Of a stretch of 36,357 nt of DNA, positions 1 through 34,900 are shown in pieces (the stretch's first letter is position 1; every line of letters starts with the position of its first letter). A model generated the notes under the pieces. That model saw nothing but the letters and a program-made list of their open reading frames with translations. It did no database searches and was not told the origin of the DNA. Location of the stretch: the IMG/VR virus record IMGVR_UViG_3300033067_001192, positions 1-36,357 of that record. One strand, 5' to 3'. Made by a program: the position numbers and the translations under genes. The DNA is from a virus (Duplodnaviria; Caudoviricetes).

Positions 1-2880
1 TGGGCGTCAGCAAATCCAGTATTAGCAATCGGTGAACCGGGCTACGAAACTAATACCGGAAAAATCAAATACGGTGATGGATCTTCCGCGTGGAACGATT
101 TGGGTTACGCTCAGACCGAGGGAACGCCCGGTGCTACCGGACCACAAGGAAATGTTGGCGCAACTGGTGCAACTGGACCACAAGGCGCCACAGGGCCACA
201 AGGCGCCACAGGGCCACAAGGCGATGTTGGTGCAACTGGCTCTACTGGTGCCACTGGTCCACAAGGTGAAGTAGGCGCAACCGGCGCTACTGGTCCACAA
301 GGATCTACTGGTCCACAAGGCGATGTAGGTGCTACCGGCTTAACAGGTGCTACTGGAGCAACCGGTCCACAAGGAGATGTTGGTGCAACTGGTCCACAAG
401 GCGATGTTGGTGCAACTGGCTTAACGGGAGCTACTGGTGCAACTGGTGTCCAAGGAGATGTTGGTGCCACTGGTGCAACAGGTCCACAGGGCGATGTTGG
501 TGCTACTGGCCCACAAGGAGATGTTGGTGCTACTGGCCCACAAGGAGATGTTGGTGCTACTGGCCCACAAGGTACTTCTATTAATGTACTAGGTTCAGTT
601 GCAACGGTTCCGAATTTACCAGTTTCTGGTAACGTCAATGATGCATATATTGTCGATGCAGATGGAGACTTGTATGTTTGGGGAGGCTCTAGTTGGTCTA
701 GCGTTGGTCAAATAGTTGGCCCAACTGGTCCACAAGGCAACACTGGTGCAACTGGTCCACAAGGTGATGTTGGTGCCACTGGTGCAACTGGACCACAGGG
801 CGATGTTGGTGCCACAGGGCCACAAGGTGACACCGGTGCTACTGGATTACAGGGCGATACCGGAGCAACTGGTGCTACAGGTCCAATTGGTGCCACAGGG
901 CCACAGGGCGATACCGGAGCAACTGGTTTACAGGGAGATATCGGTGCTACCGGACCACAAGGAAATGTTGGTGCAACGGGTGCAACTGGTCCACAAGGAA
1001 ATACAGGCGACACAGGTGCAACAGGACCACAAGGCGATGTTGGCGCAACTGGTGCAACTGGCCCACAAGGAGCAGCTGGATTACAAGGCGACACAGGTGC
1101 AACTGGACCGCAGGGCGATGTAGGTGCCACTGGTGCAACTGGTGCTACTGGACCACAGGGCGATGTAGGTGCCACTGGTGCAACTGGCGATGTAGGTGCC
1201 ACTGGTGCAACTGGACCACAAGGCGAAGTTGGTGCTACTGGTGCTACAGGACCGCAGGGTGTTATTGGTGATGTTGGCGCAACTGGTGCAACAGGGCCAC
1301 AAGGCGCTACTGGACCACAAGGCGATGTTGGTGCAACTGGACCACAAGGCGATGTTGGTGCAACTGGTGCTACTGGTGCAACTGGTCCACAAGGGAATAC
1401 AGGGGATACTGGTGCAACTGGTCCACAAGGCGATGTTGGTGCTACTGGTGCTACTGGTCCACAAGGAGCCAGCGGTTTACAGGGCGATGTTGGTGCAACT
1501 GGTCCACAAGGCGATGTTGGTGCAACTGGTGCTACTGGTGAAGTTGGTGCAACTGGTCCTGCTGGTGCGGACGGATCCAATGGAACTAGCGTAACTATTG
1601 CTGGAGATGTTCCAAACTCAGCTAGTTTGCCTGATGGTACTGGATTTGCTGTTGGTACTGGATTAATTGCTGCTGATACTGGTCATTTGTGGGTATGGAA
1701 CGGAAGCAGTTTCAATGATGTTGGTCAAATCAAAGGAGACCCAGGTGCAACTGGTCCACAGGGCGATGTAGGTGCAACTGGTGCAACTGGTCCACAAGGC
1801 GACACAGGCTTGCAAGGCGATGTAGGTGCAACTGGCCCAGAAGGAATGATGGGGCCACAAGGAGATGTTGGTGCAACAGGTGCAACAGGTCCACAGGGCG
1901 ATGTTGGTGCTACCGGTCCAATAGGTGCCACTGGCGTTCAAGGTGATGTTGGCGCCACTGGTGCAACTGGTTTACAGGGCGATGTTGGTGCTACTGGTGC
2001 TACTGGTCCACAAGGAGATGTTGGCGCCACTGGTGCAACAGGTCCACAAGGTGATGTTGGAGTTACTGGTGCTACTGGTGCAACTGGTCCACAAGGTGAT
2101 GTTGGTGCTACCGGTGCAACTGGACCACAGGGTGATGTTGGTGCTACTGGTCCAATAGGTGCTACCGGGTTACAAGGTGACGTTGGTGCTACTGGTGCTA
2201 CTGGTTTACAGGGTGATGTTGGTGCAACTGGACCGCAGGGCGCCACTGGACCGCAGGGTGATGTTGGTGCAACTGGTGCTACCGGGTTACAAGGTGATGT
2301 GGGTGCAACTGGTCCAATTGGTGCAACAGGACCACAGGGCGATGTAGGTGCCACGGGTGCAACTGGAGTTGAGGGCCCAACTGGCGCAACAGGACCAATT
2401 GGCGCAACAGGTCCACAAGGAGATGTTGGTGCAACTGGTTTACAGGGCGATGTTGGTGCAACTGGTGCAACTGGACCACAGGGCGCCACTGGACCACAAG
2501 GCGATGTTGGTGCAACTGGTGCTACTGGCCCAGCCGGAGCCGATTCGACTATGACATACGTTGCTAGATCTGCTAGCTTTACCGCAGTGTCTGGGACTGT
2601 GTATGTACTAGATTCTACATCGGGCGCATATACTATGACATTGCCAGCAACCCCGGCAGCCGGCGATTGGGTCAAAGTATACGACATTGAAAACAAATGG
2701 AGCACTAACAACTTTACTGTCAATGGCAACGGAGTTAATGTTAGAACCTGGAGCCAGGGTAGCGGAACTTACAGTGCTGCCGCTAGCACAGTAACAATTG
2801 TACAAACGCTCATTTCACCAATTGGTGTATTGGCAATGACTGTGTATTACAACGGTACTGTTTGGACTGCAATGGCTTAA
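1..2880 (+). CDS. Collagen-like tail fibre/virion fibre protein, 5'-truncated, with Mtd-N-type N-terminal domain
   Basis: Frame +1 is open from base 1 ([36 protein letters not shown], typical of the major tropism determinant N-terminal motif). Hundreds of G-X-Y triplets (GAT/GPQ/GDV) follow, with two W-containing spacers and a C-terminal beta-rich domain. The true start lies upstream of the window, not at 100. Confidence 0.9.
121..2540 (+). repeat. Coding tandem repeats of 9-bp collagen triplet units ([12 protein letters not shown])n
   Basis: Degenerate repeats such as ggtccacaaggcgatgttggtgcaact with synonymous third-position variation. Confidence 0.95.
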
Positions 2881-2902
2881 CGCTAGTTTAATCTAACGCA
2901 AG

Positions 2903-2928
2903 AAAAGCACTCTTAGGAGTGCTTTTTC
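2903..2928 (+). terminator. Rho-independent terminator
   Basis: aaaagcactc-ttag-gagtgctttt perfect stem with T tract, just after the fibre gene. Confidence 0.85.
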
Positions 2929-2941
2929 ACAACAGTGCGGG

Positions 2942-2969
2942 TTGATTTTTTAAAAACTTTTGTTAAAAT
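2942..2969 (+). promoter_or_regulatory. Sigma70-like promoter
   Basis: TTGATT-16 nt-TAAAAT with extended -10 TG, upstream of ATG 2993. Confidence 0.55.
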
Positions 2970-2992
2970 TTAATTTTTAACAAGGGGGTAAT

Positions 2993-3889
2993 ATGCTTCG
3001 AAAAATTTTTATAGCATTACTAATGTTTGCATCTACATTGGTGTATGCTGGATTTAATCCTAGGCAATCAACTGTACGAGTAGTGGTGCCTTATGCACCT
3101 GGGGGCGGGCCCGACACTGTGTATCGAATATTCGAATACTATGCTGCAAAACACAATATTGAAATGGTTCCGGTGCATAGACCTGGCGCAGACGGGCAAA
3201 TTGGCATAGCATATGCAGAAACTGTCAAACCCGACGGGTATAATTTAATGCTAACAATTGCCGGGGATTTATCGCTACGGGATTATTCTAAAAACTTTTA
3301 TCCAGTATCTGCAATATGTCAGACATCGATGTACATTGTAACTTCGGTGAACTCTGAGGTCAATAACTTATCTGACTTATATGCTCACATGAGAGCTGAT
3401 CCGAAAAAGTTAAGTTGGGCCAATTCATCTAAGAGCATTGATCGAGACATCAACTGGATTGCTCGCAAACATAATACATCACTTGGCGATCTAATCTTTA
3501 CACGATACAACAAGGGCGGGCCGCTAGCAGTAGCCGGGGGTCACGTTGATATTGGTATATGGCCTGCAAGCATAGTGGAGAGTCTAGTACTTTCTAACAA
3601 ATTAAAAGTACTAGGAAAATATCAAGCAATCGATCCTGCACCGACAGGAACTCAAAGCATAGAGCAGACCCTGGGCAAAATGGACCGATTGAACGGCTAC
3701 GGAGTTTTCTTACCAGCAAGTACTAGTACAGAAGTGCAAGAGTACTGGTCCAGATTTGTAGAACAGTTTAAAAATGATCCAGAAGTGCAACAAATGTTAA
3801 GAAATAAGTTCTTCACTATGTTTCCTCCCGGCAACAAAGTACTAATAGGTATAATCGACTACAATCGGGAGATTGCTAAAAATGACTAA
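2993..3889 (+). CDS. Tripartite tricarboxylate transporter substrate-binding protein (Bug/TctC family)
   Basis: Signal peptide; motifs VVVPYAPGGGPD, HRPGADGQIG, KPDGYNLML and VAGGHVD. Confidence 0.85.
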   Translation: MLRKIFIALLMFASTLVYAGFNPRQSTVRVVVPYAPGGGPDTVYRIFEYYAAKHNIEMVPVHRPGADGQIGIAYAETVKPDGYNLMLTIAGDLSLRDYSKNFYPVSAICQTSMYIVTSVNSEVNNLSDLYAHMRADPKKLSWANSSKSIDRDINWIARKHNTSLGDLIFTRYNKGGPLAVAGGHVDIGIWPASIVESLVLSNKLKVLGKYQAIDPAPTGTQSIEQTLGKMDRLNGYGVFLPASTSTEVQEYWSRFVEQFKNDPEVQQMLRNKFFTMFPPGNKVLIGIIDYNREIAKND

Positions 3890-4538
3890 GAAGTCGATGA
3901 TATGGATCGGCGAGTCAACTCGTAAGATTGAAGTTGTTGACAGACAAATAGTACATTGCAAAACTTTTGGCGATTTTGTAAGCTATTTTATGTCAATATC
4001 GACCCCAGAGCAGCTTCCTTGTAACATTTCTTTGTCTATACCGGATGTATTTGAGAATGGTTTAATAGACCCAATGGAATATATTAAATGTTATACTAAC
4101 TTTATTAAACTAACTAATCAACGATTTGGTACAGTTTCAGATACTATTGATATAAGTGTCAGGGTTGGTACACAATTAATGACACGTAAACAGGCTGAAA
4201 TTCTGCAGAATACTAACGTTGTTGGTATTGGGCCCATGCAAGCTGTATATGGAAAGGATGCACTCCTAGATGTATTCAATGATCGAAAAAAATACGGTGC
4301 GTCCTGGCCTGAGTATTTGATATCGAATAGGAATTGTAATAACTCAGATGTTATTACATTAACCGAGCGCCAGCAAGTTATATTTGATCTTATACGAAAC
4401 CGTGGTGTAAGTAACAAACAAATCGCGAAGTATCTAAATATTAGTGAAAGTGCTGTCAAATTTCATGTAGGGCACATTTTAAAGAAGTATAGTTTAAAGA
4501 ATCGAACGCAATTAGCGGCCCTGAAAAAATCGGTATAA
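3882..4538 (+). CDS. LuxR/NarL-family regulator (C-terminal HTH, unrecognised N-terminal domain)
   Basis: LTERQQVIFDLI..GVSNKQIAKYLNISESAVKFHVGHILKKYSLKNRTQL; ATG 3882 overlaps the upstream stop. Confidence 0.85.
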   Translation: MTKKSMIWIGESTRKIEVVDRQIVHCKTFGDFVSYFMSISTPEQLPCNISLSIPDVFENGLIDPMEYIKCYTNFIKLTNQRFGTVSDTIDISVRVGTQLMTRKQAEILQNTNVVGIGPMQAVYGKDALLDVFNDRKKYGASWPEYLISNRNCNNSDVITLTERQQVIFDLIRNRGVSNKQIAKYLNISESAVKFHVGHILKKYSLKNRTQLAALKKSV

Positions 4539-4626
4539 TACTGGAGTACAGGCTAGCCCCAAGTACAAGTTTTTCTTCGAATATTGTACCTAAGTACATA
4601 TAGCAATTAGTATATGGAGGTACAAC

Positions 4627-4851
4627 ATGCAACTTGAAACAATACACAATATTTCGGAAAAATTAACCCCAAGACAAACGCAAGTCTTAAAATTAATTTG
4701 CCACCGAGGTCTCAGTAACAAAGCTATTGGTAACATCTTAAAGATATCTGAAAGCACAGTTAAAATTCACACAAGTGCAATTCTTAGATGCTACGGTGTT
4801 AAAAATAGAACACAATTAGTTCTTGCGTATAGCAATAATTTAAGAGCGTGA
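4627..4851 (+). CDS. Stand-alone LuxR-type HTH regulator (GerE-like architecture, 74 aa)
   Basis: LTPRQTQVLKLI..GLSNKAIGNILKISESTVKIHTSAILRCYGVKNRTQL; GGAGG RBS. Confidence 0.9.
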   Translation: MQLETIHNISEKLTPRQTQVLKLICHRGLSNKAIGNILKISESTVKIHTSAILRCYGVKNRTQLVLAYSNNLRA

Positions 4852-4852
4852 T

Positions 4853-5053
4853 ATGCCCGAGCTCGGACTTGGTGCGCCAAGTAATCGGTTGTCTGAGTAT
4901 ACCGTTGACATTACTATTAGCAGTGATCTTGGTAAGATAAATTATAGAATTTTGATAACACGATACTGCCCCAATCAACCGCCATTTCCTTTTGAAATGC
5001 TGCTAACCTACGACCAGTATGTGATATTCCAACAAATGTTTGCAGTGCCATAG
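4853..5053 (+). CDS. Hypothetical protein
   Basis: Abuts the upstream stop and is followed by a terminator-like hairpin. Confidence 0.6.
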   Translation: MPELGLGAPSNRLSEYTVDITISSDLGKINYRILITRYCPNQPPFPFEMLLTYDQYVIFQQMFAVP

Positions 5054-5076
5054 TACTGAAGCACATACTAATACCC

Positions 5077-5101
5077 AAGCCTGGCTTTTGCTGGGCTTTT
5101 T
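5077..5101 (+). terminator. Rho-independent terminator
   Basis: aagcctggc-tttt-gctgggctt stem (two G-U pairs) followed by a T run. Confidence 0.65.
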
Positions 5102-5117
5102 CATTTTAAGTATTATT

Positions 5118-5242
5118 AACTCGGTCAACAAAACGAGATTCAAATATCGAACATGTTGTTCGATGTCCCGACTTCATATAGGAAAGGGTCCTGTGTGCAG
5201 TCAAATATCACTAGGGTTTAATCTATGCGACTAAGAGTCATA
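5118..5242 (+). other. Candidate structured 5' leader or ncRNA
   Basis: Consecutive hairpins: ctcg..cgag (5120-5137), atatcgaaca/tgttcgatgt (5144-5166), gact-catatagga/tcctgtgtg-agtc (5170-5202), gact-aag-agtc near 5229-5239. Confidence 0.4.
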
Positions 5243-5296
5243 ATATTTTAATTATAGCAAAAACCTTAGTAAATTTTAACTTTAAAGGAAAATAAA

Positions 5297-5851
5297 ATGG
5301 CTGATATGTTAACAACTGATCCGTTCTTTAACCTAACTAACCAGGTAGCTGGTGTTCGCGAAAAAGTATCGGATTCTATTTTTGAAAACTACAAACTACA
5401 AGTCGCTCAAACTAACGACATCAACAACCGCGCTATGCAAGTGGCATTGCATGATGCAACTGCATTGGCAGATCTAAAGCAAGCCGTTGCAGAAGGCACT
5501 TTGCAAACCATGTTGGCAGCTGGTCGTACAGATGCTGCAATCGGACAAACCGCTGCCGCAACAATGCGTGCCATTATGGAACAAGGCGAATTGACTCGTA
5601 ACTTAGTCAACGGTATCAATACTCAAAACTTGAATACTGCTTTGATTAACACTAACACAGCATTGTCTGGTTTAGGCGTTCAATTCGGTGGATTGGGTCT
5701 TGCTTACGGTGGTGCTGTTGCTGCTTATCAAAGCGCCAATAGCGTTAGCGCTGTAAATGCATTGGGTAGTGCTCTAGCTAGCAACGGTATCATCAATACC
5801 GGTACTCTAACTGGTGCTACACAGACTGCAACTCCAACAACAATTCGCTAA
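5297..5851 (+). CDS. Ala/Thr/Asn-rich putative structural protein, paralog A
   Basis: Strong RBS aaaggaaaataaaATG; about 80% identical by eye to 5904..6467; no Cys or Trp. Confidence 0.85.
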   Translation: MADMLTTDPFFNLTNQVAGVREKVSDSIFENYKLQVAQTNDINNRAMQVALHDATALADLKQAVAEGTLQTMLAAGRTDAAIGQTAAATMRAIMEQGELTRNLVNGINTQNLNTALINTNTALSGLGVQFGGLGLAYGGAVAAYQSANSVSAVNALGSALASNGIINTGTLTGATQTATPTTIR

Positions 5852-5856
5852 TAGTC

Positions 5857-5882
5857 AACTAGGGCAGGAATCTGCCCTAGTT
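5857..5882 (+). promoter_or_regulatory. Intergenic hairpin (mRNA stabiliser or partial terminator)
   Basis: Perfect 11-bp stem aactagggcag-gaat-ctgccctagtt. Confidence 0.7.
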
Positions 5883-5903
5883 TAAAACACAAAGGAAAAT
5901 AAA

Positions 5904-6467
5904 ATGGCTGATATTACATCATTGGCTACAGATCCGTTCTTTTATCTAACTAACCAGGTAGCTGGCGTTCGTGAAAAAGTTTCGGACTCTGTATTCGAAA
6001 ATTATAAACTACAAGTCGCTCAAACTAACGACATCAACAATCGAGCAATGCAGGTAGCATTGCAAAAAACTACTGCTCTTGCTGATTTAAAATCAGCAAC
6101 ATCGGCTGGTACGTTACAGACTATGCTGGCCGCAGCTCGTACAGATGCTGCGATCGGTCAAACTGCCGCGGCCACTATGAGAACAGTAATGGAACAAGGC
6201 GAATTGACACGCGGAGTAATCAATGGTATCAATACTCAAAACTTGAATACCGCATTGATTAACACTAACACCGCATTGTCGAGTCTTGGTACTCAGTTTG
6301 GTGGACTAGGTCTTGCATATGGTGGCGCAGTTTCTGCTTACCAAAGTGCAAACCAAGTTAGTGCTGTAAATGCACTCGGTAGCGCTTTAGCTAGTAACGG
6401 TATTATTAACACCGGAACTGCGGCAAACGTTGCACAAACTGGTACACCAACATCCATCGGCACTTAA
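5904..6467 (+). CDS. Ala/Thr/Asn-rich putative structural protein, paralog B
   Basis: Same RBS/start context (aaaggaaaataaaATGGCTGATAT) as paralog A; tandem duplicate. Confidence 0.85.
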   Translation: MADITSLATDPFFYLTNQVAGVREKVSDSVFENYKLQVAQTNDINNRAMQVALQKTTALADLKSATSAGTLQTMLAAARTDAAIGQTAAATMRTVMEQGELTRGVINGINTQNLNTALINTNTALSSLGTQFGGLGLAYGGAVSAYQSANQVSAVNALGSALASNGIINTGTAANVAQTGTPTSIGT

Positions 6468-6483
6468 TTTTAAGGAGAACAAC

Positions 6484-6660
6484 ATGATTGTATCTTCTTT
6501 TGGATTAGGTGGCTGGGGCTATCCTAGAGGCTACCTTGCTGCTGGACTTGGCTATCCATACGGCAGTGTATTTGGTTACCCGGGATGGGGATGCGGCTAT
6601 GGCTACCCAGGATACGGATGCTATGGCGGTTATGGATATCCATACCCACTATATCGCTAA
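6484..6660 (+). CDS. Small Gly/Tyr/Pro-rich protein (58 aa)
   Basis: AAGGAG RBS before ATG 6484; GYPYG, GCGYGYPGYGCYGGYGYPYP repeats. Confidence 0.8.
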   Translation: MIVSSFGLGGWGYPRGYLAAGLGYPYGSVFGYPGWGCGYGYPGYGCYGGYGYPYPLYR

Positions 6661-6667
6661 CCTAAAC

Positions 6668-6699
6668 AGCGGGCTAATTCACAAGATTGGCCCGCTTTT
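6668..6699 (+). terminator. Terminator-like hairpin
   Basis: agcgggctaat-7 nt-attggcccgct followed by ttt. Confidence 0.6.
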
Positions 6700-6713
6700 A
6701 AAAAAGGAAAAAT

Positions 6714-6908
6714 ATGTACTCACACTATCTATACCCAGTTTACAGATTTCCGGGCTACGGCTACGGCGGATACGGATACCCATATGGTTATCCAACATTT
6801 GGTTACGGTTACGGCAATTACATCGGAAGTGCATTTGGTTATAATAACCTAATCAACACCGGTACTGCCTCAGATATTACTCAAATTGCTAGCCCGATTG
6901 TAATATAA
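6714..6908 (+). CDS. Small Gly/Tyr-rich protein with shared C-terminal INTGT tag
   Basis: aaggaaaaatATG; GYGYGGYGYPYGYP; ends NYIGSAFGYNNLINTGTASDITQIASPIVI. Confidence 0.8.
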   Translation: MYSHYLYPVYRFPGYGYGGYGYPYGYPTFGYGYGNYIGSAFGYNNLINTGTASDITQIASPIVI

Positions 6909-6909
6909 A

Positions 6910-7611
6910 ATGTATAAAAAGATCACACACGATATACGGGAAGAACACTATGATCATCCCGCATCTTTGCCTGCTCATATGCAAGCTGAATTAATTCAAC
7001 CCTCTAGTCAAGGTAGTCTACCGTCCTGGCTAATAAACGAACAAACTATGTTATTTAGGATGGACTCGAGAACTGCCTGGTCAAAATGGGCATTTTCGTT
7101 GCTAAACTATTCTATTAGTTTGAACGGAGATTTGCCTGGCACTGACCAAGTTAAAGGGAGAGTTAATAAGAATGCAATGATATTGGGCGATTTTTTAGTC
7201 CCTTATTATGGACTAACAGCTGGCAACACGTTTGCATCTGCTCTTATCTCAATTAACGACGTTGGCATGCATTATGTTAATGCATTAAAGGAAGGAAAAC
7301 CTACAGACAACATAGTTGAATTATGGGAACCACTTGTGTATGACATTGGAAAAATTATGTCAGAGCTTAATCCAGTATACTGGCCCGATGCGTTAATATG
7401 TGACATGTTCAAAAACTTAGTTCTAGCTTGGCAGCAGCAATTGACTGCAAGGACCAATGGTGATATTGTAGCTGACGAAATTGCAATCGATCACATTAAT
7501 AAAATTGTAGTCACTGGATTGCCTAATCATATTAGGGCCGGCTATAGTAGCATTGCAGATACGTTCAGTCGTGGTATTATTGCCCAATTTCCAGATATGT
7601 TTATGGTGTAA
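6910..7611 (+). CDS. Helical-bundle protein resembling an uncharacterised Bacillota family often mis-annotated 'acetylglutamate kinase', paralog 1
   Basis: Motifs R.AW, LP, PYYG..AG..F, W......I...MSELNP.YW, GD..ADEIAID, ADTFSRGIIAQFP..F (family recalled from memory, not searched). Confidence 0.6.
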   Translation: MYKKITHDIREEHYDHPASLPAHMQAELIQPSSQGSLPSWLINEQTMLFRMDSRTAWSKWAFSLLNYSISLNGDLPGTDQVKGRVNKNAMILGDFLVPYYGLTAGNTFASALISINDVGMHYVNALKEGKPTDNIVELWEPLVYDIGKIMSELNPVYWPDALICDMFKNLVLAWQQQLTARTNGDIVADEIAIDHINKIVVTGLPNHIRAGYSSIADTFSRGIIAQFPDMFMV

Positions 7612-7616
7612 TCGAT

Positions 7617-7871
7617 ATGGCATTAATTACTACTTCTTCTAAAATTGGCAATCCAGACATAGAGTATTCTAGTTTGGAAACACACGTGGTTATGTCTCTG
7701 GAGCGTTATAAAGCTATCGAGGCACGATTAAGCAAAGCTGAGCTAGGTATAGAAAATGTGCAAGCTCAAATAAAAACAAACAGACTCTATATTATAGGAG
7801 CAACATCAACAGTGTTAGCGGGTATATGCAGCACATTAATTACTCTTATGATAGCAGTTCAAAAGTTTTAA
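7617..7871 (+). CDS. Small coiled-coil protein with a C-terminal transmembrane helix
   Basis: SLETHVVMSLERYKAIEARL coiled coil, then hydrophobic LYIIGATSTVLAGICSTLITLMIAV. Confidence 0.7.
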   Translation: MALITTSSKIGNPDIEYSSLETHVVMSLERYKAIEARLSKAELGIENVQAQIKTNRLYIIGATSTVLAGICSTLITLMIAVQKF

Positions 7872-7880
7872 GGAGTATAT

Positions 7881-8399
7881 ATGAATATCGAAGATACTAA
7901 ACACAGATTCGAAGCACTAAAAATGGCACGAGAATTGCTAAACGAAGAGTATATCAATCGGCGCGCCGAAGATCATAACAAATGGATCGCTGAATGTGAT
8001 ATTGCATGGAAGACAAAAGGTATTAAATTACCATACCCGGCATTTGCGCCGTATCCTTCGGAAGCAGAGATACTAGCACGGGCCTCCACCCTCTATAGTT
8101 TTATCAGCTCTAAAGCGGCCGAAACAGCCCAGCCTGATACTACAGAAACAAATCCATGGTCCACTACGCTTTCTTCTCCGTTACTAGCGCAAACAGAAGC
8201 CCCGACTACTACCACTGCTCCCGAGCCAGTTGTATCAGCAAACATTTCAGAAGCTTCCCCGGAGCCAGCTCTGCCAACTATAGAACAGGCGCCGGTCATA
8301 CCAAAGCCTTTGTTTGCAATGGCACCAACACCGGCGCCAACATCTGCATTAAAGAACATGCTACCAAGTTGGTTGCAAAATAAGGACGGCAATGTTTAA
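7881..8399 (+). CDS. Hypothetical phage protein (helical N-terminus, Pro/Thr/Ala-rich tail)
   Basis: AAGGAG RBS; RFEALKMARELL...YPSEAEILARA motif followed by low-complexity tail. Confidence 0.75.
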   Translation: MNIEDTKHRFEALKMARELLNEEYINRRAEDHNKWIAECDIAWKTKGIKLPYPAFAPYPSEAEILARASTLYSFISSKAAETAQPDTTETNPWSTTLSSPLLAQTEAPTTTTAPEPVVSANISEASPEPALPTIEQAPVIPKPLFAMAPTPAPTSALKNMLPSWLQNKDGNV

Positions 8400-8898
8400 T
8401 AACCTGGGATTGTTTAGTCCAAGGAAGCCGACTCTTAAAGCTCCGGTTAGACGCATCCCAATTGCCGCTCCGGCGCAATTTGGGGGCTACGGCAATGATT
8501 TTTTCCTAACAGGTACGCTAAATGTGCCTGGTGGTCAAGGGCCGGCCGGTCCCACTGGCCCTACTGGCCCAATTGGACTTACTGGCGCAACAGGGCCGAC
8601 AGGACCAGCTGGTACTGTGGGACTAGTTTCAGTAACCGACGTAACAACCACCCCATATAATGCATTGTTAACCGATTATTATCTAGCAGTTGATGTTGCT
8701 GCCGCAGCATCTATCGTTTTACCAGTAAGCCCAACTGGAACTGTTTTTATTATTAAAGATATTGACGGTGATGCTGCAACGAATCCGATTACTATCACAG
8801 CATCTACTACAATCGATGGTGCTGCATCTGCAACGATTACCGCCGACTACGGAAGCGTAACACTCATATTCAATGGTACTGAATGGAATATAGTGTAA
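8392..8898 (+). CDS. Short collagen-like protein with C-terminal beta-rich head domain
   Basis: GQGPAGPTGPTGPIGLTGATGPTGPAG followed by LP..PTGTVFIIKD..G.A..NPITI..TIDG..YGSVTLIFNGTEWNIV. Confidence 0.8.
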   Translation: MFNNLGLFSPRKPTLKAPVRRIPIAAPAQFGGYGNDFFLTGTLNVPGGQGPAGPTGPTGPIGLTGATGPTGPAGTVGLVSVTDVTTTPYNALLTDYYLAVDVAAAASIVLPVSPTGTVFIIKDIDGDAATNPITITASTTIDGAASATITADYGSVTLIFNGTEWNIV

Positions 8899-8928
8899 GA
8901 GTACCATTATAAACATAAAGGAAATAAA

Positions 8929-9327
8929 ATGTCATATACAAATAATGCAACATCAATTCTTGCCGGTACAGGCATTACAGTTGCACCAACTACAGGAACC
9001 GGTGCAAATACAATCACAATTAGTGCTGCGGGCCCTGATATTTTAACGGTTAGGATAGCTACTACGACCCCGGACACAGTGCTAGCAACAGATGAAGTTG
9101 TAAGCTACGAAGTACCGGGCCCAGTCGCAGTAGCAGTAACACTACCGGCCGGAGTCACTGGGCAAGTATTCTATCTTAAAGATGGGTTAGGCTTAGCAGG
9201 TCTATTAACGCCTATTACCATTACACCGGCTGCTGGTACAATTGATGGTGCTGCTACAGCAGTTATCAATGCACCGTATGGCGCACTTACATTAGTCTAC
9301 AGCGGTGTAGAGTGGAAATTAATATAA
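8929..9327 (+). CDS. Small beta-rich fibre-head-like protein, paralog
   Basis: TLPAGVTGQVFYLKD...PITITP..GTIDG...YGALTLVYSGVEWKLI; aaggaaataaaATG. Confidence 0.8.
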   Translation: MSYTNNATSILAGTGITVAPTTGTGANTITISAAGPDILTVRIATTTPDTVLATDEVVSYEVPGPVAVAVTLPAGVTGQVFYLKDGLGLAGLLTPITITPAAGTIDGAATAVINAPYGALTLVYSGVEWKLI

Positions 9328-9333
9328 TATACT

Positions 9334-9801
9334 ATGGCTTACAATAGAGCACCAAGTACTATAATAGCCGGCAGGGCGTTAAAACAAACCCCGCCGCCTA
9401 GTGTATTAGAACCCGCAGGAGTAGTTACTCTCGTAGTCGATGCTGATATTGCTACTACCACAAGCTGTGGGGTTGTGCAAATTGGAAGTGGTCTTAGTAT
9501 CACTCCCACTGGAGTATTATCGGCAACTAGCAGCGGAGGATTGATAAACGTCAAACTTACGGCCATTGATTATCTAGTAGCCGACAAGGATTATTACATT
9601 GGCGCAACAAACAATAATATAAAGATTACATTACCACTGGGAATCCTAGGAAAAGTATATGTGATTAAAAACCAATCATCGGGTAATATCAAGATTGATG
9701 CTACCAATGGTGAAACTTTGGATAGTTCCAACTTTAAAACTATCGGAAGTGAAGCTGCAATAATCGTAGTGTTCGATGGCACACGATGGAACATTATTTA
9801 A
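9334..9801 (+). CDS. Small beta-rich fibre-head-like protein, paralog
   Basis: ATTTSCGVVQIGSGLSITPTGVLSA (fibre shaft repeat); TLPLGILGKVYVIKN...FDGTRWNII. Confidence 0.8.
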   Translation: MAYNRAPSTIIAGRALKQTPPPSVLEPAGVVTLVVDADIATTTSCGVVQIGSGLSITPTGVLSATSSGGLINVKLTAIDYLVADKDYYIGATNNNIKITLPLGILGKVYVIKNQSSGNIKIDATNGETLDSSNFKTIGSEAAIIVVFDGTRWNII

Positions 9802-9812
9802 AAGGAAATAAA

Positions 9813-10511
9813 ATGTACAAAGTAATTACACACACAATCACAGAAGAGCACTTTAATCACCCTAGTATAGTTGAGCATGCTCTTACTCGCGGGAATATTC
9901 ACCCAAAAATGTCAACTAGTATCGTATCAAACGCTATTATAAATTACGATACACTAGCAGCATCTAATTATCGAAATTTAGTTAGATCTTTACTTGAAAC
10001 ATACGTTGCCGATGTAAGGAGTGCAGTAGTTAGTATTATGGGATCGGGGGAAGATACTGGTATTGTTGAAAACAAACTACACCAAACTATAACAGAAATT
10101 GCAGATCGTGTACTCAAGCCCTACTACTCAAGCGATGTTGTTTCTAAAATTGAGCAACATTTAAAAGGGTACACTGTAAGCCTATTAGATATAGCTAAAT
10201 CAGAAAAAAGCGGAAGAAATGTCACTGAGTTTGAAAATACGTTAAAACAACATACTGAAGAACTTGCTATGATGTTAAACACCGTTAATCAGCTATGGAG
10301 CCGAGAAGAGATGCTTAACTATTACACATGGTATTCGCAGGCTGTAAAAGATCAGATTAGGAATCGAAAATCTAAAAACTGGGCTTCAGACCAAGAAGCA
10401 TACGATTATGGGCGTAACGTAATGCTATCTGGTATTCTTAGTAAATTCCCGGGATATTCTCAAGTGTTAGCAAAAGGAGTAATTGCGCAACACGCAGACC
10501 GATTTCGTTAA
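9813..10511 (+). CDS. Helical-bundle protein, paralog 2 of 6910..7611
   Basis: RBS aaggaaataaaATG at 9813 (not 9786); MYKVITHTITEEHFNHP matches MYKKITHDIREEHYDHP; LKPYYS, VNQLWS, LAKGVIAQHADRF. Confidence 0.7.
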   Translation: MYKVITHTITEEHFNHPSIVEHALTRGNIHPKMSTSIVSNAIINYDTLAASNYRNLVRSLLETYVADVRSAVVSIMGSGEDTGIVENKLHQTITEIADRVLKPYYSSDVVSKIEQHLKGYTVSLLDIAKSEKSGRNVTEFENTLKQHTEELAMMLNTVNQLWSREEMLNYYTWYSQAVKDQIRNRKSKNWASDQEAYDYGRNVMLSGILSKFPGYSQVLAKGVIAQHADRFR

Positions 10512-10546
10512 TGGCGAAATGCCCCCAAAGATAAAAAATCCTTAAG

Positions 10547-10566
10547 GAAAGGGCTTAGGCCCTTTC
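10547..10566 (+). terminator. Hairpin ending the accessory module
   Basis: gaaagggc-ttag-gccctttc perfect stem. Confidence 0.6.
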
Positions 10567-10618
10567 GCCTATTATAGCTGCACATAACGATTTACTCGGG
10601 CCCTACTATGTTAAATCA

Positions 10619-10626
10619 CATAAATA
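10619..10626 (+). promoter_or_regulatory. T4-like late promoter
   Basis: CATAAATA about 20 nt upstream of ATG 10647. Confidence 0.55.
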
Positions 10627-10646
10627 ATACAAACAGGGTTTCGGAA

Positions 10647-13600
10647 ATGGCAAAACAACTAAATGATCTATCTCGTATTCAGCAAATTAACATAGGTGTA
10701 AGTCCCAACGATGGTACGGGAGACAATTTGCGCACAGCCTTTGAAAAGATCAACCAAGGATTTGGTGCTATCCTTGACAATCTAGGACAAGGTGTTGCAT
10801 TTTCGGGACTGTCGGACACGCCAGACGGATACGCAATTAATGGAATCGTAACAACAAATGCCAATGCATCGGCACTGATTTACAGATCTGTTATTGGATC
10901 GGACATTGATATTGCGATAGATGACACTAGTATCAGTATTGGATTACCTGACGTTATTTCTAACGAGCATACGTTTGCCGAGAATGTTCGGTTTCTAAAA
11001 GATATTATAGTAACTGGTAATACTATAGTCCAAGACAGCTATATCAACGTTGATGTTTTTGAGACTCGCAATAGAGCAATTATAACAGATACAACGGTAG
11101 CCACAAATAAAACTAGCGGAGCCTTGCAAGTTTCAGGCGGGGCAGGTATTGCTGGCGATGTATATGCAACAACATTCAATGGGGCACTAAACGGATCAGT
11201 GAACGGCACTGTTAGTAGCTTGTCTAACCACAACTCCGATAATTTAGTAGAGGGCTCTACCAACTTGTATTGGACCGCAGCAAGGGCAGCAGCAAATAAA
11301 AAATATATCGACGATAACGATTATTCAAATTCTTCCCCTCTTGCAGGTGTCCTTGGCGAAAATCTTGTGCCACTTTATTCAGATTTTAAGTTTAGTCTCG
11401 GGGCATCGGGATCGTATTCTTTCTTCCTTACAGATGATCAAAATTTTGAAGTAGTGTACTTTCATGGTAATACTCCTACTGGGAACATTCGCCCATTTAG
11501 GGCCTATAGATTTGCTGCTAATCAAGAATTCATCTACGATCCAGAGCCACTAGCTGTATCTTTTGCAGCACCAAACGAGTACGTTAAGCTTTTAATGAAC
11601 GTGGGCACGCAATTTGCATATATTGAATTGCGCAACAATGTGGCCAATACTAGCCGCAAGGTGTTGGCTAAAACTAACGGTAGTAGCAAGAGCATAACTT
11701 GGACGTTAGCGGCCGATGTATCTAGTATAGCTGCTGGTACTACTAACTTTTTCTTACTAGTAAACCCAGATGGCGATCGTATTTTAAAGACAACTATGTC
11801 GGGAACAAGTGTTACTCTCGATGTATATAATAGCAGTTTAACCCTATTGCGCACACAGCAATTATTTACTAGTACAGAAGTCACTAACACTGATCTCAGT
11901 GGACAGGGAAGAACTGTAGGCGATTCATCATTGCCATTTGGTTATAATCCTTTTGGAACTGCTTTTGCGTTTACTTGGAATCGATTCACTAATAATTTCT
12001 TAATGAAGTTGGTAGGATACTATGTTTATACTAGGGCCGACGGCGGGGTTGTGGGACAGAGTTTCGGAAGCACTATATCTTGGAATATACCACAAAGTTG
12101 GTTACATTCGGGTGCCGGGACACCGACAAACTTAATACCAGTTAAATCATCTGGATATCGATATCACAAACTCCCAGACTCAACCTGGGATACTACCGAT
12201 GGAGGCATGGGTACCAGTTACGGAAATGGCGGACAAGGTATTAGTGTTACTACAGACGAATATGCCAAAAGGATTACATTATCCTCAGTTGGTACTTGGA
12301 CAACCACTGGTTTTTCGGTATACGCATTTTACAATCAAGAGTACAAAACAATTGGCGGAAACATGTCGCCAATCTACTCAACATCTGTAAATATTCCCGA
12401 TGCAAGTCCATGGAGTAAGTTAACATATGCTAGCTTCGGTCAAATTATTGACAACAATATACTATTCACCGGAGTAAGTAACAAATTTGGAAGTAAGGCC
12501 GTAGCTGCTAATTTTTCATCATCGGTCTTTAGTTCTATTGTTTCTGCAAACGATACATTAAAGTTAGATCCCACTTCATATGCGTTTGAAACTGGATCAA
12601 ACACTAGTTACTCGACTACGGTGAGAAATGGTACCCCGTATTATTATCAGATTGTTCCCGGTACCGAAGTCCAATCTATTACAGTAGTCAACGGCGTGCG
12701 TATTAAAACTGGAACTGGCTTTACTTTACCAGCGATACCAACTACTGTAGGCGGGGTATCCGGGGTATCAATAGCTGGGCCAATTGTTTATAATGCCAAC
12801 GACAGTGATCGAAAGTTTTGGGCCTTTACTAGCAGTAGCACCGGGCAGTCGTACATTGCTGAATACAGTAACAGTGGCTGGAATACAATACACGGGCCGT
12901 TTTTACAAGATCAAATTGATACTGGCAAGGCCAATCGAGGCGACACAACAAACAACTGGTTTGCTAGCAATGGCACTGTATGTCTAACAGAAAACGGTAG
13001 ATTTTTAGGGCAGTTTGGTGTTTCCCATGTTGGGGGAACAGCATGGTATCAGACTGTGTTTGATGTTAATACAAATACTTGTACTGTTAGAGGGGGCACT
13101 GAGTTTAACAATCCATCTGGTGCATATGGCGGCGTAAGCGGTTATTATGGTACTAGTTTTGGCTATAGTACAGGATTTGGTTATTTTTGTGCCGCCGGCA
13201 GTGGCACACAAACATCAATCGCAATCGTTTCATCAAAAGATATAAGAGGGGTAGGTGCGCCTATTACTGAGGACGAATGGTTCAATAACACCGCAACTCG
13301 ATATGTGATACATTTGTCTGCAGAGCCTACAGTTGGGTTATTTGTGTACCTAAAAACATATCCTCTATTCATTGGCGGGTATTATTCTTCTGTTCCTGAA
13401 CTAAGTTTGCCAGTGGCACCTAATTCTACAAACTACGTTTATGCAGAAAGAAGTCCTACAGATAGAACAGTAATTAACATTACAGTTAGCGTAGACTATC
13501 AGCCTAGTAGTTTTAATAAGGTAGTACTAGGCGAAGTAATTACTAATGCAGATAAAGTTACATCTGCAACTTCTTATGCAATTGATGGGGGCAAGAGTTC

Positions 13601-13679
13601 GCTAATTGAATCAGTTAACTTGCTTAAAAGTCAAGTTGCTGCACTAACTACAGAAATCAATATACTAAAAGGCCTATAA
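10647..13679 (+). CDS. Baseplate-attached tail fibre/spike protein
   Basis: N-terminal QQINIGVSPNDGTGDNLRTAFEKIN (T4 gp9/gp10-like motif); SGALQVSGGAGI and DNLVEGSTNLYWT fibre motifs; G/S/T/aromatic-rich body; C-terminal coiled coil. Confidence 0.75.
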   Translation: MAKQLNDLSRIQQINIGVSPNDGTGDNLRTAFEKINQGFGAILDNLGQGVAFSGLSDTPDGYAINGIVTTNANASALIYRSVIGSDIDIAIDDTSISIGLPDVISNEHTFAENVRFLKDIIVTGNTIVQDSYINVDVFETRNRAIITDTTVATNKTSGALQVSGGAGIAGDVYATTFNGALNGSVNGTVSSLSNHNSDNLVEGSTNLYWTAARAAANKKYIDDNDYSNSSPLAGVLGENLVPLYSDFKFSLGASGSYSFFLTDDQNFEVVYFHGNTPTGNIRPFRAYRFAANQEFIYDPEPLAVSFAAPNEYVKLLMNVGTQFAYIELRNNVANTSRKVLAKTNGSSKSITWTLAADVSSIAAGTTNFFLLVNPDGDRILKTTMSGTSVTLDVYNSSLTLLRTQQLFTSTEVTNTDLSGQGRTVGDSSLPFGYNPFGTAFAFTWNRFTNNFLMKLVGYYVYTRADGGVVGQSFGSTISWNIPQSWLHSGAGTPTNLIPVKSSGYRYHKLPDSTWDTTDGGMGTSYGNGGQGISVTTDEYAKRITLSSVGTWTTTGFSVYAFYNQEYKTIGGNMSPIYSTSVNIPDASPWSKLTYASFGQIIDNNILFTGVSNKFGSKAVAANFSSSVFSSIVSANDTLKLDPTSYAFETGSNTSYSTTVRNGTPYYYQIVPGTEVQSITVVNGVRIKTGTGFTLPAIPTTVGGVSGVSIAGPIVYNANDSDRKFWAFTSSSTGQSYIAEYSNSGWNTIHGPFLQDQIDTGKANRGDTTNNWFASNGTVCLTENGRFLGQFGVSHVGGTAWYQTVFDVNTNTCTVRGGTEFNNPSGAYGGVSGYYGTSFGYSTGFGYFCAAGSGTQTSIAIVSSKDIRGVGAPITEDEWFNNTATRYVIHLSAEPTVGLFVYLKTYPLFIGGYYSSVPELSLPVAPNSTNYVYAERSPTDRTVINITVSVDYQPSSFNKVVLGEVITNADKVTSATSYAIDGGKSSLIESVNLLKSQVAALTTEINILKGL

Positions 13680-16471
13680 TGAACGTACCAATTTGGAAAA
13701 CTCCCAAGGACTTAGGTGTATTAGCCAGTGGATCTTATTTTGAAAAATCTATAGAAGCCATTAGTACTGGGTATCCTGTCACTTACAGTGTAATTTCTGG
13801 TGAACTGCCTACAGGAATACACCTAACTGAAAATGGCACGTTAGTAGGAGTCCCTACCATCACTGGCACAGAATCCAATCTCCTGGGTACCTTCACTGTT
13901 AGGGCTAGGAATAGTCTAGGCAAAATAGCCGATAGAACATTTAAGATAACAGTATCGGGCGTACAACCTCCAACAATACTTTCGGCTACTACAGACCTAG
14001 GAGTGCAGTATGACGGGCTGTATTTCCGTCATCAACTTGTGGCGCTGGACGAAGGAAATACCAACAATCTACATTGGAAGTTTATTAGAGGTAGATTACC
14101 TCCGGGAATTACACTAAGCCCCAATGGGTTATTGGAAGGGGTGTTTTACCAGAATAAAGTAGAAACAGCAGCATTTGAAAAAATGGGTTGGGACAAACTT
14201 GGCTGGGACAAATTTATGTTTGACTTTATTAGTCAACACTCTGATACAAATTACGAGTTTACTGTTGAACTAAGTGACGGTATTAACTACAGTCGACAAA
14301 CTTATTCTCTCAAACTAATTGCTAGGGCGTTACTAACTGGTGATAGGGTTTTGCGCACCATGGATGAAACAGAAGTATCTGTAGACCATGACAACATCAA
14401 CTTGCCATTTGTTACAACAATGCCGCAAGTGCTGTCACAAATTAAGCCCGAAACATCGAGACAGGACACGTACTTTGCTTACAAGTTTGATGCACTTGAT
14501 CTTGACGGCGAAGAAATTTACTTTGAGATTACTAGTCCAGATGAGAGGGGCTATGACCAGGATGGTGAAATTGGCTTTGACATGGACGAGTTTGACAGCA
14601 GTGATTATCCTATGCCCAAATACCTAGGCCTAGATAATCACACCGGCTGGTATACTGGAAAGTTAGGTAAGCAAGTCGATCACAAGGAAGACTATCAGTT
14701 TCAGATTTATGCAAGGAAAGCCTACGACCGAAACTTGCAAGGTTACAGAAGTAACTTTGTTGTTTCTGTACTAGGTCAAGTTGACGAGAACATTACTTGG
14801 GCTACTGACTCAAACTTAGGCAGCATTGACAATGGTGCAATATGTATTTTGCGAGTCAATGCCATACACAGTGCCGGTCGTGATGTCGAATACTACTTAA
14901 AAAGTGACGGCGGGCGCACACCCCAAGGTGTTGTACTACAAAAGAGCGGTATGCTGAGTGGGCGAGTTACTTTTGAGTACTTCCATTTTGACAATGCAGA
15001 TACTACTATAGATGACAATAAAACTACCTTTGATCGTGTTCATAAATTTACAGTAGTAGCACAAACTCCTAATCGTAGTGCATATAGCGAACGCACATTT
15101 ACATTAACAGTTGATCGTGTAAATCAAAAGCCCTTTGAGAATCTATATCTCAAAGGATTCCCCAACAGGGACCAGCGTATCTTGTTTAAGAGCATCATGG
15201 ACAGGCAAGACTTGTTTCCCGATCCGCTGATATACCGTCTAGATGATCCGTACTACGGCAAAGCAGTTGACTTACGATTCCTGTTTTTGGCAGGTATCGA
15301 CACGGCCGATGTTGCTACATATATTGAGGCCATGAGTAAGAACCATTATACCAAAACAGTACTGTTTGGCGATGTCAAGACGGCAGTTGCGTTAGACGAT
15401 CACTACAACGTTCAATACGAGGTAGTCTATTTAGATGTAATTGACGAGCAAGAGGGCCGCGATCCTGTTACTGGAAGACCGGCACCGCCAGCGCAATCAA
15501 TAAGTCTTGCTAAAAATAAGAACAAATATATAGTCAACGATCAGCCCGTGCTAGAGTTTACGCCTAATGCGTTAGGCAACATGAGTAAACGTATCGAAGA
15601 AGTCATGGGTGTTGTAAATCCCAACACACTGCCTGCATGGATGACCTGTCCACAGCCTAGTTCGGTACCGGGACGATACGAGACTCCTCTGGGATATACT
15701 AGGGCAGTGGTGCTAGCATATACAGTGCCCGGGGCCAGTAAGCTAATTGCTTATAGGTTAAAAAATGCCAATTTTACATTTAACAGTATCCCATTCAAGA
15801 CTGACCGATATCAACTAGATAACTATCTATCGACTAACTTTGATTTGGATCTGGGCAAATTTATCCCAGGAATAGAGACCACAATAGATGCAGTCCCAAG
15901 CATTGCTCAGAGGTACAGAGATATGGGACTCGTTGACTATGCAGTAGTCGCGGCCTATGACGAAATCAACAATCAAACAGTAGACACGATCGTAGCCAAT
16001 GGTAGTATTGATGGTGCAACTGAATTGGCCGACGGCCAAACACTAATCTTTTATCAGCAAGATCAATTCCCTGCAGAAATCCCAGGGTACATAGACAGTA
16101 TTATATCCGGATCCGAAAACGAGCGTTCGGCTGTATACACTATCAACATTGGCGACGACCAAACAGTCACACTAACTTTGCTAAGATTAACCCAGCCCGG
16201 GGATGTGATTACCGTCCTTCACGGTATGACTTATGCAAAGCGCCGACTGAATTTTGAAGCATATGCGCTACACGGGTTTGTCCCGCGCTGGTGGACATTT
16301 ACTAAAGAGTTAACGTATGATTCAGTCAGCACCGATAGTTTGATCAAACCTCACAGAGAAACTACGTTTGATCAGCGTGGTACTAGATTCTTTAGCTACA
16401 GAGATCATTATGCAGACCTTGATTCAACGGCTAAATACATAAAGTTTCCAAAAGACGGAGTATTCATTTAA
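13679..16471 (+). CDS. Large virion structural protein with putative Ig (He_PIG-like) repeats, likely baseplate
   Basis: Repeated YSVISGELPTGIHLTENGTLVGVP, GRLPPGITLSPNGLLEG, GRTPQGVVLQKSGMLSG and FTV.A...DRTF motifs. Confidence 0.75.
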   Translation: MNVPIWKTPKDLGVLASGSYFEKSIEAISTGYPVTYSVISGELPTGIHLTENGTLVGVPTITGTESNLLGTFTVRARNSLGKIADRTFKITVSGVQPPTILSATTDLGVQYDGLYFRHQLVALDEGNTNNLHWKFIRGRLPPGITLSPNGLLEGVFYQNKVETAAFEKMGWDKLGWDKFMFDFISQHSDTNYEFTVELSDGINYSRQTYSLKLIARALLTGDRVLRTMDETEVSVDHDNINLPFVTTMPQVLSQIKPETSRQDTYFAYKFDALDLDGEEIYFEITSPDERGYDQDGEIGFDMDEFDSSDYPMPKYLGLDNHTGWYTGKLGKQVDHKEDYQFQIYARKAYDRNLQGYRSNFVVSVLGQVDENITWATDSNLGSIDNGAICILRVNAIHSAGRDVEYYLKSDGGRTPQGVVLQKSGMLSGRVTFEYFHFDNADTTIDDNKTTFDRVHKFTVVAQTPNRSAYSERTFTLTVDRVNQKPFENLYLKGFPNRDQRILFKSIMDRQDLFPDPLIYRLDDPYYGKAVDLRFLFLAGIDTADVATYIEAMSKNHYTKTVLFGDVKTAVALDDHYNVQYEVVYLDVIDEQEGRDPVTGRPAPPAQSISLAKNKNKYIVNDQPVLEFTPNALGNMSKRIEEVMGVVNPNTLPAWMTCPQPSSVPGRYETPLGYTRAVVLAYTVPGASKLIAYRLKNANFTFNSIPFKTDRYQLDNYLSTNFDLDLGKFIPGIETTIDAVPSIAQRYRDMGLVDYAVVAAYDEINNQTVDTIVANGSIDGATELADGQTLIFYQQDQFPAEIPGYIDSIISGSENERSAVYTINIGDDQTVTLTLLRLTQPGDVITVLHGMTYAKRRLNFEAYALHGFVPRWWTFTKELTYDSVSTDSLIKPHRETTFDQRGTRFFSYRDHYADLDSTAKYIKFPKDGVFI

Positions 16472-17713: not shown

Positions 17714-17950
17714 ATGCACCCACTTGCACCTGACCTAAGTACATTATCTGATAACGATTTGCATAAGAAGCATGGCGAACTAGTTCAACGACTAGCCCAA
17801 GCTTACCGAATTGGTCCGTTTAGTATTATCGGTCAGTTGCAAATGTTGTTGGAAAACTATAATGCCGAGATTCAACGCCGCAATCAAAAGATCATGGATG
17901 AAATGATGAAAAAAGGCAAAAACATGAGCGGCATTATTGACATCAAATGA
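17714..17950 (+). CDS. Hypothetical protein
   Basis: Tightly packed ORF in operon, helical. Confidence 0.7.
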   Translation: MHPLAPDLSTLSDNDLHKKHGELVQRLAQAYRIGPFSIIGQLQMLLENYNAEIQRRNQKIMDEMMKKGKNMSGIIDIK

Positions 17951-34892: not shown

Positions 34893-34900
34893 TATAAATA
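34893..34900 (+). promoter_or_regulatory. T4-like late promoter
   Basis: Exact TATAAATA upstream of ATG 34920. Confidence 0.65.

Follow-up and report, generated by a model that had tools for sequence, protein, structure and literature searches.

A candidate self-assembling structural cassette shared among large T4-like freshwater phages

What might a phage build from a block of small, co-oriented genes that looks, at first sight, like the makings of a bacterial spore coat? The question is raised by the virus record IMGVR_UViG_3300033067_001192 (Duplodnaviria; Caudoviricetes), the entire 36,357 bases of which form the stretch analyzed here (hereafter, the window). Positions 2993-10511 of the window hold 15 co-oriented open reading frames (ORFs), named A (TctC), B and C (LuxR), D, E1, E2, G1, G2, H1, I, J, K, L, M, and H2, which an earlier sequence-only reading had counted as 14 genes and taken for a spore-coat- or exosporium-like module. 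All of the parts that it listed are there: Pfam assigns A to the TctC family and finds the GerE/LuxR helix-turn-helix (HTH) domain twice, in B and in C; E1 and E2 are Ala/Thr/Asn-rich paralogs (84% identical; 39% Ala+Thr+Asn; no Cys); G1 and G2 are Gly/Tyr-rich peptides (31% Gly and 22% Tyr in G1, 19% and 22% in G2); H1 and H2 are helical-bundle paralogs with 19% identity; I is the predicted membrane-anchored coiled coil, with a C-terminal hydrophobic segment (KD19 1.92); and K, L, and M are the three beta-headed proteins, among which the collagen announced for K comes to merely 11 Gly-X-Y triplets (8530-8628), 3 of them GPT.

Comparison of loci identifies the block as a conserved cassette that is mobile among large T4-like phages of fresh water. 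Its body looks structural and self-assembling by sequence, as had been supposed, and the resemblance to spore coats is, by analogy, an architectural one with no homology found. The most economical reading is that the cassette encodes a self-assembling product, because it combines one abundant subunit, minor partners with that subunit's tail, low-copy fibers, and a maturation protease.

Conservation, mobility and carriers

At the 90% cluster level, 763 relatives of E1 were counted, and its relatives occur in 42 viral loci (29 of them non-redundant; the window is counted and one locus without a called E omitted), where the genes travel as a unit in the recurring order LuxR-E(1-2)-G1-G2-H(1-2)-I-J-K-heads-H-protease. 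Among the 28 loci long enough to score, each body gene was found in 16-27 and K/L/M in 27, with the limit that K/L/M and H1/H2 cross-hit, so that these counts are not independent. A LuxR gene lies upstream in 30/38 loci. A papain-like peptidase stands at the end of the cassette in 20/28 relatives and is absent from the window, which holds a protease-less, double-LuxR version; the claim that the body has no enzyme motif is right for this copy and wrong for most relatives. The papain genes of FLC9 and LR756511 lie outside any cassette.

Other features of the window copy are not shared. D is found in 1/38 loci, and the TctC protein, once proposed as a periplasmic sensor, matches none of the 38 by tblastn, with no viral relatives found; in one locus (L008), a barely related TctC adjoins LuxR on the opposite strand. 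Insertion sites vary among carriers, and just 3 of 94 flanking proteins (scanned out of 124 listed, with repeats, module members, and doubtful ORFs omitted) match virion-structural families, plus one terminase, so that the window's site between fiber genes is atypical. On this comparison, TctC and the placement between fiber genes are local accidents of the window. Separately, a TctC-like gene is paired with a TctA-like one on a phage-like contig binned in a Chitinophagales metagenome-assembled genome (MAG), along with several small enzyme genes that include methyltransferase-like ones (L045:2732-5368).

Profile searches reached a second, distant group of E proteins (E'; probability 99.7%) in 62 viral loci (43/60 non-redundant) with a reduced form of the cassette, which often consists of E', one or two heads, and one peptide only. 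A head gene follows E' within 2 ORFs in 55/57 loci, and of these 57, 35 have the protease within 5 kb of E' and 36 a Tyr-rich peptide; LuxR is present in 20/62. A psbA-family ORF was found in 17 loci of this group, one of them verified by Pfam, and in one locus a pmoC/amoC gene lies directly upstream of the E' cassette (L093:6865-7635). The capsid protein gp23 scored over the cut-off in 9/34 carrier records, which are mostly fragments, and in 3/3 complete ones. Carriers include two capsid lineages, and since their gp23 proteins are only around 30% identical, the kit is unlikely to be tied to the surface of one host virion.

The window itself encodes MazG, a Pol III alpha fragment, Cpn10, a clamp-loader-type ATPase, PhoH, DnaJ, and ClpA/B, a gene set that fits a large phage, and its sequence is present in riverine and freshwater sequencing runs. 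A search of 185,579 prokaryote genomes found E in one 10-kb MAG contig only, together with LuxR and H, which we read as a mis-binned phage. Neither E1 nor H1 has a tblastn match in 50,697 GenBank phage records, and the H copy of locus L023 as well as the proteins P0194 and P0254 have no match in GenBank phages either; for one cyanophage E', the only match there is phage At2, a weak one.

A third group of E proteins is found in the cultured small phages phiPLPE, At2, and KLER1-1 as well as in a Citrobacter genome; phiPLPE gp38, At2 gp65, and KLER1-1 gp74 are distant E relatives reached via P0259 and have a Gly-rich hydrophobic N-terminal segment. In the cultured small phages, the E-like gene and the tiny ORF that follows it lie at L046:6419-7590, L047:6770-8225, and L112:5845-6733. 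The "tail-fiber" label of phiPLPE gp38 is putative. The available part of PMC3391216 does not mention this protein.

Families of the cassette could be among those tabulated as protein clusters in the supplement to 10.64898/2026.10.24.761521. The part of that source at hand has no mention of spore, collagen, cysteine protease, or coiled terms. A literature search covering neither subscription papers nor bioRxiv supplements found no published description of the cassette, in line with the earlier statement that no comparable system is known in a phage of a Gram-negative host.

The predicted E subunit, its possible partners and its likely regulator

Of the cassette genes that had at least two hits, E is the best conserved, with a median identity of 76%. 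AlphaFold predicts one helix (residues 9-162) followed by a low-confidence tail, and the hydrophobic period of 3.60 in the close and 3.64 in the distant group implies a straight hydrophobic stripe; a heptad coiled coil was ruled out by low power at 3.5. A homotrimer prediction reached a median of 0.31 against a mark of 0.42, which speaks neither for nor against a trimer. Searching PDB sequences with the E profile gave nothing credible, no RebB, PspA, or phasin hit (including PF11747) appeared in Pfam for 30 E sequences up to an E-value of 1, and neither E nor H has a polyhedrin-family match in Pfam or PDB sequence searches. Judged by these searches, E is a subunit of no known family. A Cys-rich coat protein is not supported as a model, with Cys in 2/58 E copies and no coat hit in Pfam or NCBIfam.

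E and G2 end in a common tail of around 27 residues. A hidden Markov model of the E tail (last 42 alignment columns) searched against 2965 ORFs retrieved only E and small Tyr-rich ORFs below an E-value of 0.5, with one match judged by eye to be an E' fragment; the window's own G2 lies outside this ORF set, and its tail was compared by eye. In 7 loci, E and G2 both carry a GAGA variant of the tail, and in 24 loci both lack it, i.e., an agreement of 31/31 in a count that includes near-duplicates. On a tree of tail-less E, 7 changes are required to explain the variant, no fewer than 4 of them forced. This agreement fits co-assembly of predicted E and G2 subunits.

Codon usage sets E apart from the heads. 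The fraction of C-ending Asn/Phe/Tyr/Ile codons is 0.64 in E1 and 0.55 in E2 vs. 0.24-0.36 in K/L/M, and across the close group the best E ranks first in 25/36 loci and among the top three in 34/36, with heads at background. In the two close genomes L023 and L034, the codon bias of E is near that of the gp23 capsid gene (2/2).

Upstream of the first E gene, a pattern picked post hoc (TAA[GA]TA or TTAACTAA, 20-200 nucleotides upstream) occurs in 31/33 close loci vs. 77/611 other ORFs, and in the distant group the same promoter-like motif precedes E' in 17/17 loci with LuxR and 7/27 without. The TAAGTA element resembles a T4 late promoter. Structured 5' leaders lie ahead of E in most relatives; the window leader spans 5112-5296, of which 5150-5296 folds at z -2.8, with no Rfam match anywhere in 2800-10700. 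Sigma-70 sites are no more frequent than expected by chance (23 vs. 22.9). The regulator had been likened to the stand-alone GerE, a comparison that does not hold up: 54/58 LuxR ORFs of relatives carry an extra N-terminal domain, 4/58 are HTH-only at under 110 amino acids (aa), and the LuxR profile matches NarL at 3e-17 vs. GerE at 2e-7. The N-terminal domain has no Pfam match in 11 sequences, though it is receiver-like by eye.

The heads of K/L/M match phage proteins in the PDB, namely a gp34-type proximal long tail fiber (9f4a_Le, 7e-5), the N-terminal part of tailspike TSP4 (0.01), and a gp9-type protein (0.08), and PHROG 972 and 20556 are each found in 13/39. The TSP4 match is confined to residues 101-168, i.e., domain XD1, and no match to XD2/XD3 was found in the heads. 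According to PMC8825819, XD1 is a spacer of unclear function common to gp9 and gp10, and the docking modules are XD2/XD3. Kinship with the exosporium finds no support here, as the head profile retrieved no BclA or BxpB chain from the PDB up to an E-value of 5 at sequence level. For the second beta-head type of relatives, no match was found. An ice-binding protein (PF11999) stands among the head genes of one relative (L023:12270-13427), with the same family at L034:6628-7785. In K itself, a single RTX-like GxGND motif (8491-8511) recurs in head-family proteins of 32 loci and in only 2 other ORFs.

H is predicted with high confidence (predicted local distance difference test, pLDDT, 95.6) as a six-helix bundle that resembles Bacillota clusters labelled "acetylglutamate kinase family" or fused to LysM (TM 0.87-0.88; LysM fusion in 27% of one cluster); a related bacterial family is annotated "acetylglutamate kinase" or "glycosyltransferase". 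The H profile found nothing credible among PDB sequences, and a fold search gave no Foldseek match at an E-value of 0.001 or below and a best Z of 8.6, under the bar for helical bundles. Because the His motifs conserved in 27-28/28 non-phage-like relatives survive in 1-2/60 phage copies, the metal site of H has likely been lost. The L023 copy of H matches 10 plasmid records, and the H neighborhoods on two Bacillus-family plasmids hold no cassette. An N-terminal tag, MYKKITH, heads 47 ORFs, comprising H bundles and at least two other domains, and is distributed as a loading signal would be. A small Cys domain that is weakly HiPIP-like (E-value 0.04, below cut-off) occurs in 11 loci (e.g., L008:14518-14796 and L014:7911-8153), in 4 cases behind this tag. 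I is weakly XhlA-like, with two relatives matching PF10779 below cut-off.

What the cassette may build

We tentatively favor the view that the cassette is a late-made kit for a bulk E/G2 polymer that bears short fibers and ends up on or around virions. LuxR and the TAAGTA late-type promoter would switch on the body, and E would be made in near-capsid amounts and pack side by side via its straight hydrophobic stripe. The shared tail could stack E with G2, which would act as minor subunit or nucleator, while I may tether the assembly to the inner membrane and MYKKITH-tagged proteins may be loaded as accessories. Trimers of K, L, and M would stick out as interchangeable adhesive knobs, which in some relatives include an ice-binding domain, and the papain-like protease of most relatives would mature or release the structure. 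Late in infection, the product would end up in a coat or mesh that lies on the progeny virions or around them, with adhesion to particles or protection in water as its likely benefit. We put the chance of such a polymer somewhat below even.

Several observations weigh against it. In the distant group, E' lies below gp23 in codon bias in 7/7 genomes, clearly so in 6 (0.23-0.35 vs. 0.47-0.52), and ranks first in only 9/41 loci. The small-phage relatives of E sit with one or two tiny ORFs and no other module genes, KLER1-1 gp74 lies among replication genes, and the 3 proteins that GenBank marks as confirmed by mass spectrometry do not include phiPLPE gp38, though that list is too short to weigh much. 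Agreement between the E and G2 tails may reflect linkage, because a distance of around 0.5-1 kb would allow both tails to be exchanged in a single block, and the promoter-like pattern was chosen after the sequences had been viewed. Finally, the XD1 matches are weak (7e-5 to 0.08) and concern what PMC8825819 describes as a spacer of unclear function.

In the rival that we consider best placed, though unlikely, the cassette is an ordinary low-copy accessory branch of tail or head fibers with K, L, and M as XD-type baseplate adaptors and E, G, and H as chaperones or linkers. The gp34/gp9/TSP4 and PHROG matches of the heads, the short collagen of K, and the position of the window block between fiber-like genes all speak for it. 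However, the head match is to XD1 (TSP4 101-168) and not to the docking modules XD2/XD3, as these are assigned in PMC8825819, no tailspike or long receptor-binding gene was found in the cassette, flanks are rarely structural (3/94) and the LuxR is a dedicated one, and codon bias is much stronger in E than in the heads.

We regard as unlikely an occlusion- or cyst-like body, in which E, G1, and G2 would polymerize under the inner membrane into a cross-linked shell or matrix that holds many virions after cell death until the protease dissolves it. Such a body would make sense of the high-copy codon signal of E, the anchor I, the Tyr/Gly-rich peptides, the cassette's own regulator, the protease in 20/28 loci, the independence from capsid lineage, and the Bacillota relatives of H with their partial LysM fusion. 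Yet no spore or occlusion protein homology emerged from Pfam, NCBIfam, or PDB searches, there is neither a Cys lattice nor a cross-linking enzyme in the cassette, the heads are of phage-fiber type, and the reduced cassette often comprises only E', one or two heads, and a peptide. It is similarly improbable, in our view, that giant freshwater phages of cyanobacteria, methanotrophs, and other bacteria share a regulated kit for a virion-holding protein body equivalent to an occlusion body or exosporium; this body would be nucleated on the inner membrane, display swappable adhesins (e.g., the ice-binding one), and be opened by the papain-like protease. Least probable is an intracellular membrane-active or anti-grazer device akin to R-bodies or to phasin/PspA, in which the straight amphipathic helix of E would line or puncture membranes and the remaining genes would be add-ons: a period of 3.60-3.64 suits a surface-lying helix or straight barrel, the small-phage relatives have their hydrophobic N-segment and lack the other module genes, and I is weakly XhlA-like, but no RebB, PspA, or phasin hit was found among the 30 E sequences (up to an E-value of 1), and the near-obligate head genes (55/57) would go unexplained.

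Whichever product is made, a conserved, regulated structural kit spans capsid lineages that are around 30% identical and include phages with genes for photosynthesis and methane oxidation. Should it coat or bundle virions, the persistence, attachment, and dispersal of large phages in fresh water would be altered. The kit could also yield a self-assembling protein material of a new kind, in which the assembly tail is short and portable. The five-gene reduced form is tractable in E. coli, and the E-like genes of cultured small phages are models for E function.

The window copy and comparison with known systems

The features of the window copy are collected in Table 1. Of the hairpins said to bound the block, the left one stands out (z -3.1), and the right one (z -1.5) is within chance; three internal hairpins, which the earlier reading did not mention, also stand out (5077-5098, 5857-5882, and 6663-6700), and the first of them separates a regulatory unit from the body. 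The block has the same GC content as the remaining window. Contigs from 4 runs (3 studies) cover 29-30/30 bins, and the left junction is crossed by one X2 record (2494-3304); among the pieces displayed, no single one spans the whole block.

Table 1. Features of the cassette and its borders in the window.
Feature	Positions	Strand	Evidence
Terminator-like hairpin 3' of collagen fiber gene	2902-2927	+	z -3.1
A, TctC-family solute-binding protein, local passenger	2993-3889	+	PF03401, E-value 5e-9
B, LuxR/NarL-type HTH with unassigned N-terminal domain, likely cassette regulator	3882-4538	+	Pfam GerE/LuxR HTH
C, second LuxR copy, HTH only, unusual among relatives	4627-4851	+	Pfam GerE/LuxR HTH
D, 66-aa sporadic ORF	4853-5053	+	83% identical relative in L021, 1/38 loci
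Terminator-like hairpin at end of regulatory unit	5077-5098	+	z -2.8
TAAGTA, T4-late-promoter-like element ahead of structured leader (role inferred)	5107-5112	+	motif class upstream of E
E1, predicted major subunit, single amphipathic helix and conserved C-terminal tail	5297-5851	+	
Strong intergenic hairpin after E1	5857-5882	+	z -5.4
E2, paralog of E1	5904-6467	+	84% identical
G1, 58-aa Gly/Tyr-rich peptide, 2 Cys	6484-6660	+	in 26/28 loci
Strong intergenic hairpin after G1	6663-6700	+	z -5.0
G2, 64-aa Gly/Tyr-rich peptide with E-type tail motif at end	6714-6908	+	in 24/28 loci
H1, six-helix bundle, N-terminal MYKKITH tag	6910-7611	+	in 26/28 loci
I, short coiled coil and C-terminal hydrophobic segment	7617-7871	+	KD19 1.92; in 16/28 loci
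J, conserved helical N-domain and Pro/Thr/Ala-rich tail	7881-8399	+	in 25/28 loci
K, GxGND motif, 11 collagen triplets, XD1-type head	8392-8898	+	
L, short shaft and XD1-type head	8929-9327	+	second most conserved body gene, median 71%
M, short shaft and XD1-type head	9334-9801	+	
H2, second tagged helical bundle	9813-10511	+	start is ATG behind strong Shine-Dalgarno sequence, not 9786
Short hairpin after H2	10547-10566	+	z -1.5; 13/200 shuffles as good, within chance

The block is flanked by a 926-codon collagen-like ORF (100-2880) on one side and a 1023-aa ORF on the other. The former probably enters from the contig start, has two short non-collagen inserts, and ends in a C-terminal domain weakly like the cassette heads (probability 41%). 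Elsewhere in the window, 17947-18465 encodes a stand-alone 172-aa fragment of bacterial Pol III alpha, and ORFs with acidic repeated segments lie at 34920-36355 behind a TATAAATA element (34893-34900), the longer of them without Pfam match; for the tail gene at 13679-16471, the search turned up no viral relative.

Among known systems, curli and Fap amyloid operons combine an atypical LuxR regulator with major and minor subunits that have a common Asn/Gln/Thr/Gly motif and, in Fap, a protease. The cassette differs from them in that E is predicted to be helical with one motif copy and in having no secretion channel or signal peptide. The distant E relatives phiPLPE gp38, At2 gp65, and KLER1-1 gp74 belong to small phages and stand there in two- or three-gene units.

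The exosporium of the Bacillus cereus group (BclA, BxpB, ExsY/CotY; PMC10470788) is alike by analogy only, with a basal subunit that is abundant, beta-headed trimers of collagen-like type, short targeting motifs common to several proteins, and a LuxR-type regulator. Its basal layer is Cys-rich, whereas E is Cys-free and helical, and the cassette has heads without BclA/BxpB sequence match, 11 collagen triplets, and no sporulation context. Jumbo phages CBB, Y3, Atu_ph07, and PTm1 have hair-like appendages, which PMC7824862 and PMC13282480 describe as accessory surface fibers proposed for attachment in flowing water; any records of such phages in the GenBank set encode no close E1 or H1 relatives, because neither protein had a match there. 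Compared with the XD-fiber systems of T4 (gp9, gp10, gp34) and CBA120 (TSP4), the cassette is without XD2/XD3 match or tailspikes, lies in a mostly non-structural context with its own regulator, and has in E a high-copy helical subunit without counterpart there. What its K, L, and M heads have in common with these proteins (PMC8825819) is a match to the XD1-type beta-sandwich, and its carriers, too, are gp23-type phages.

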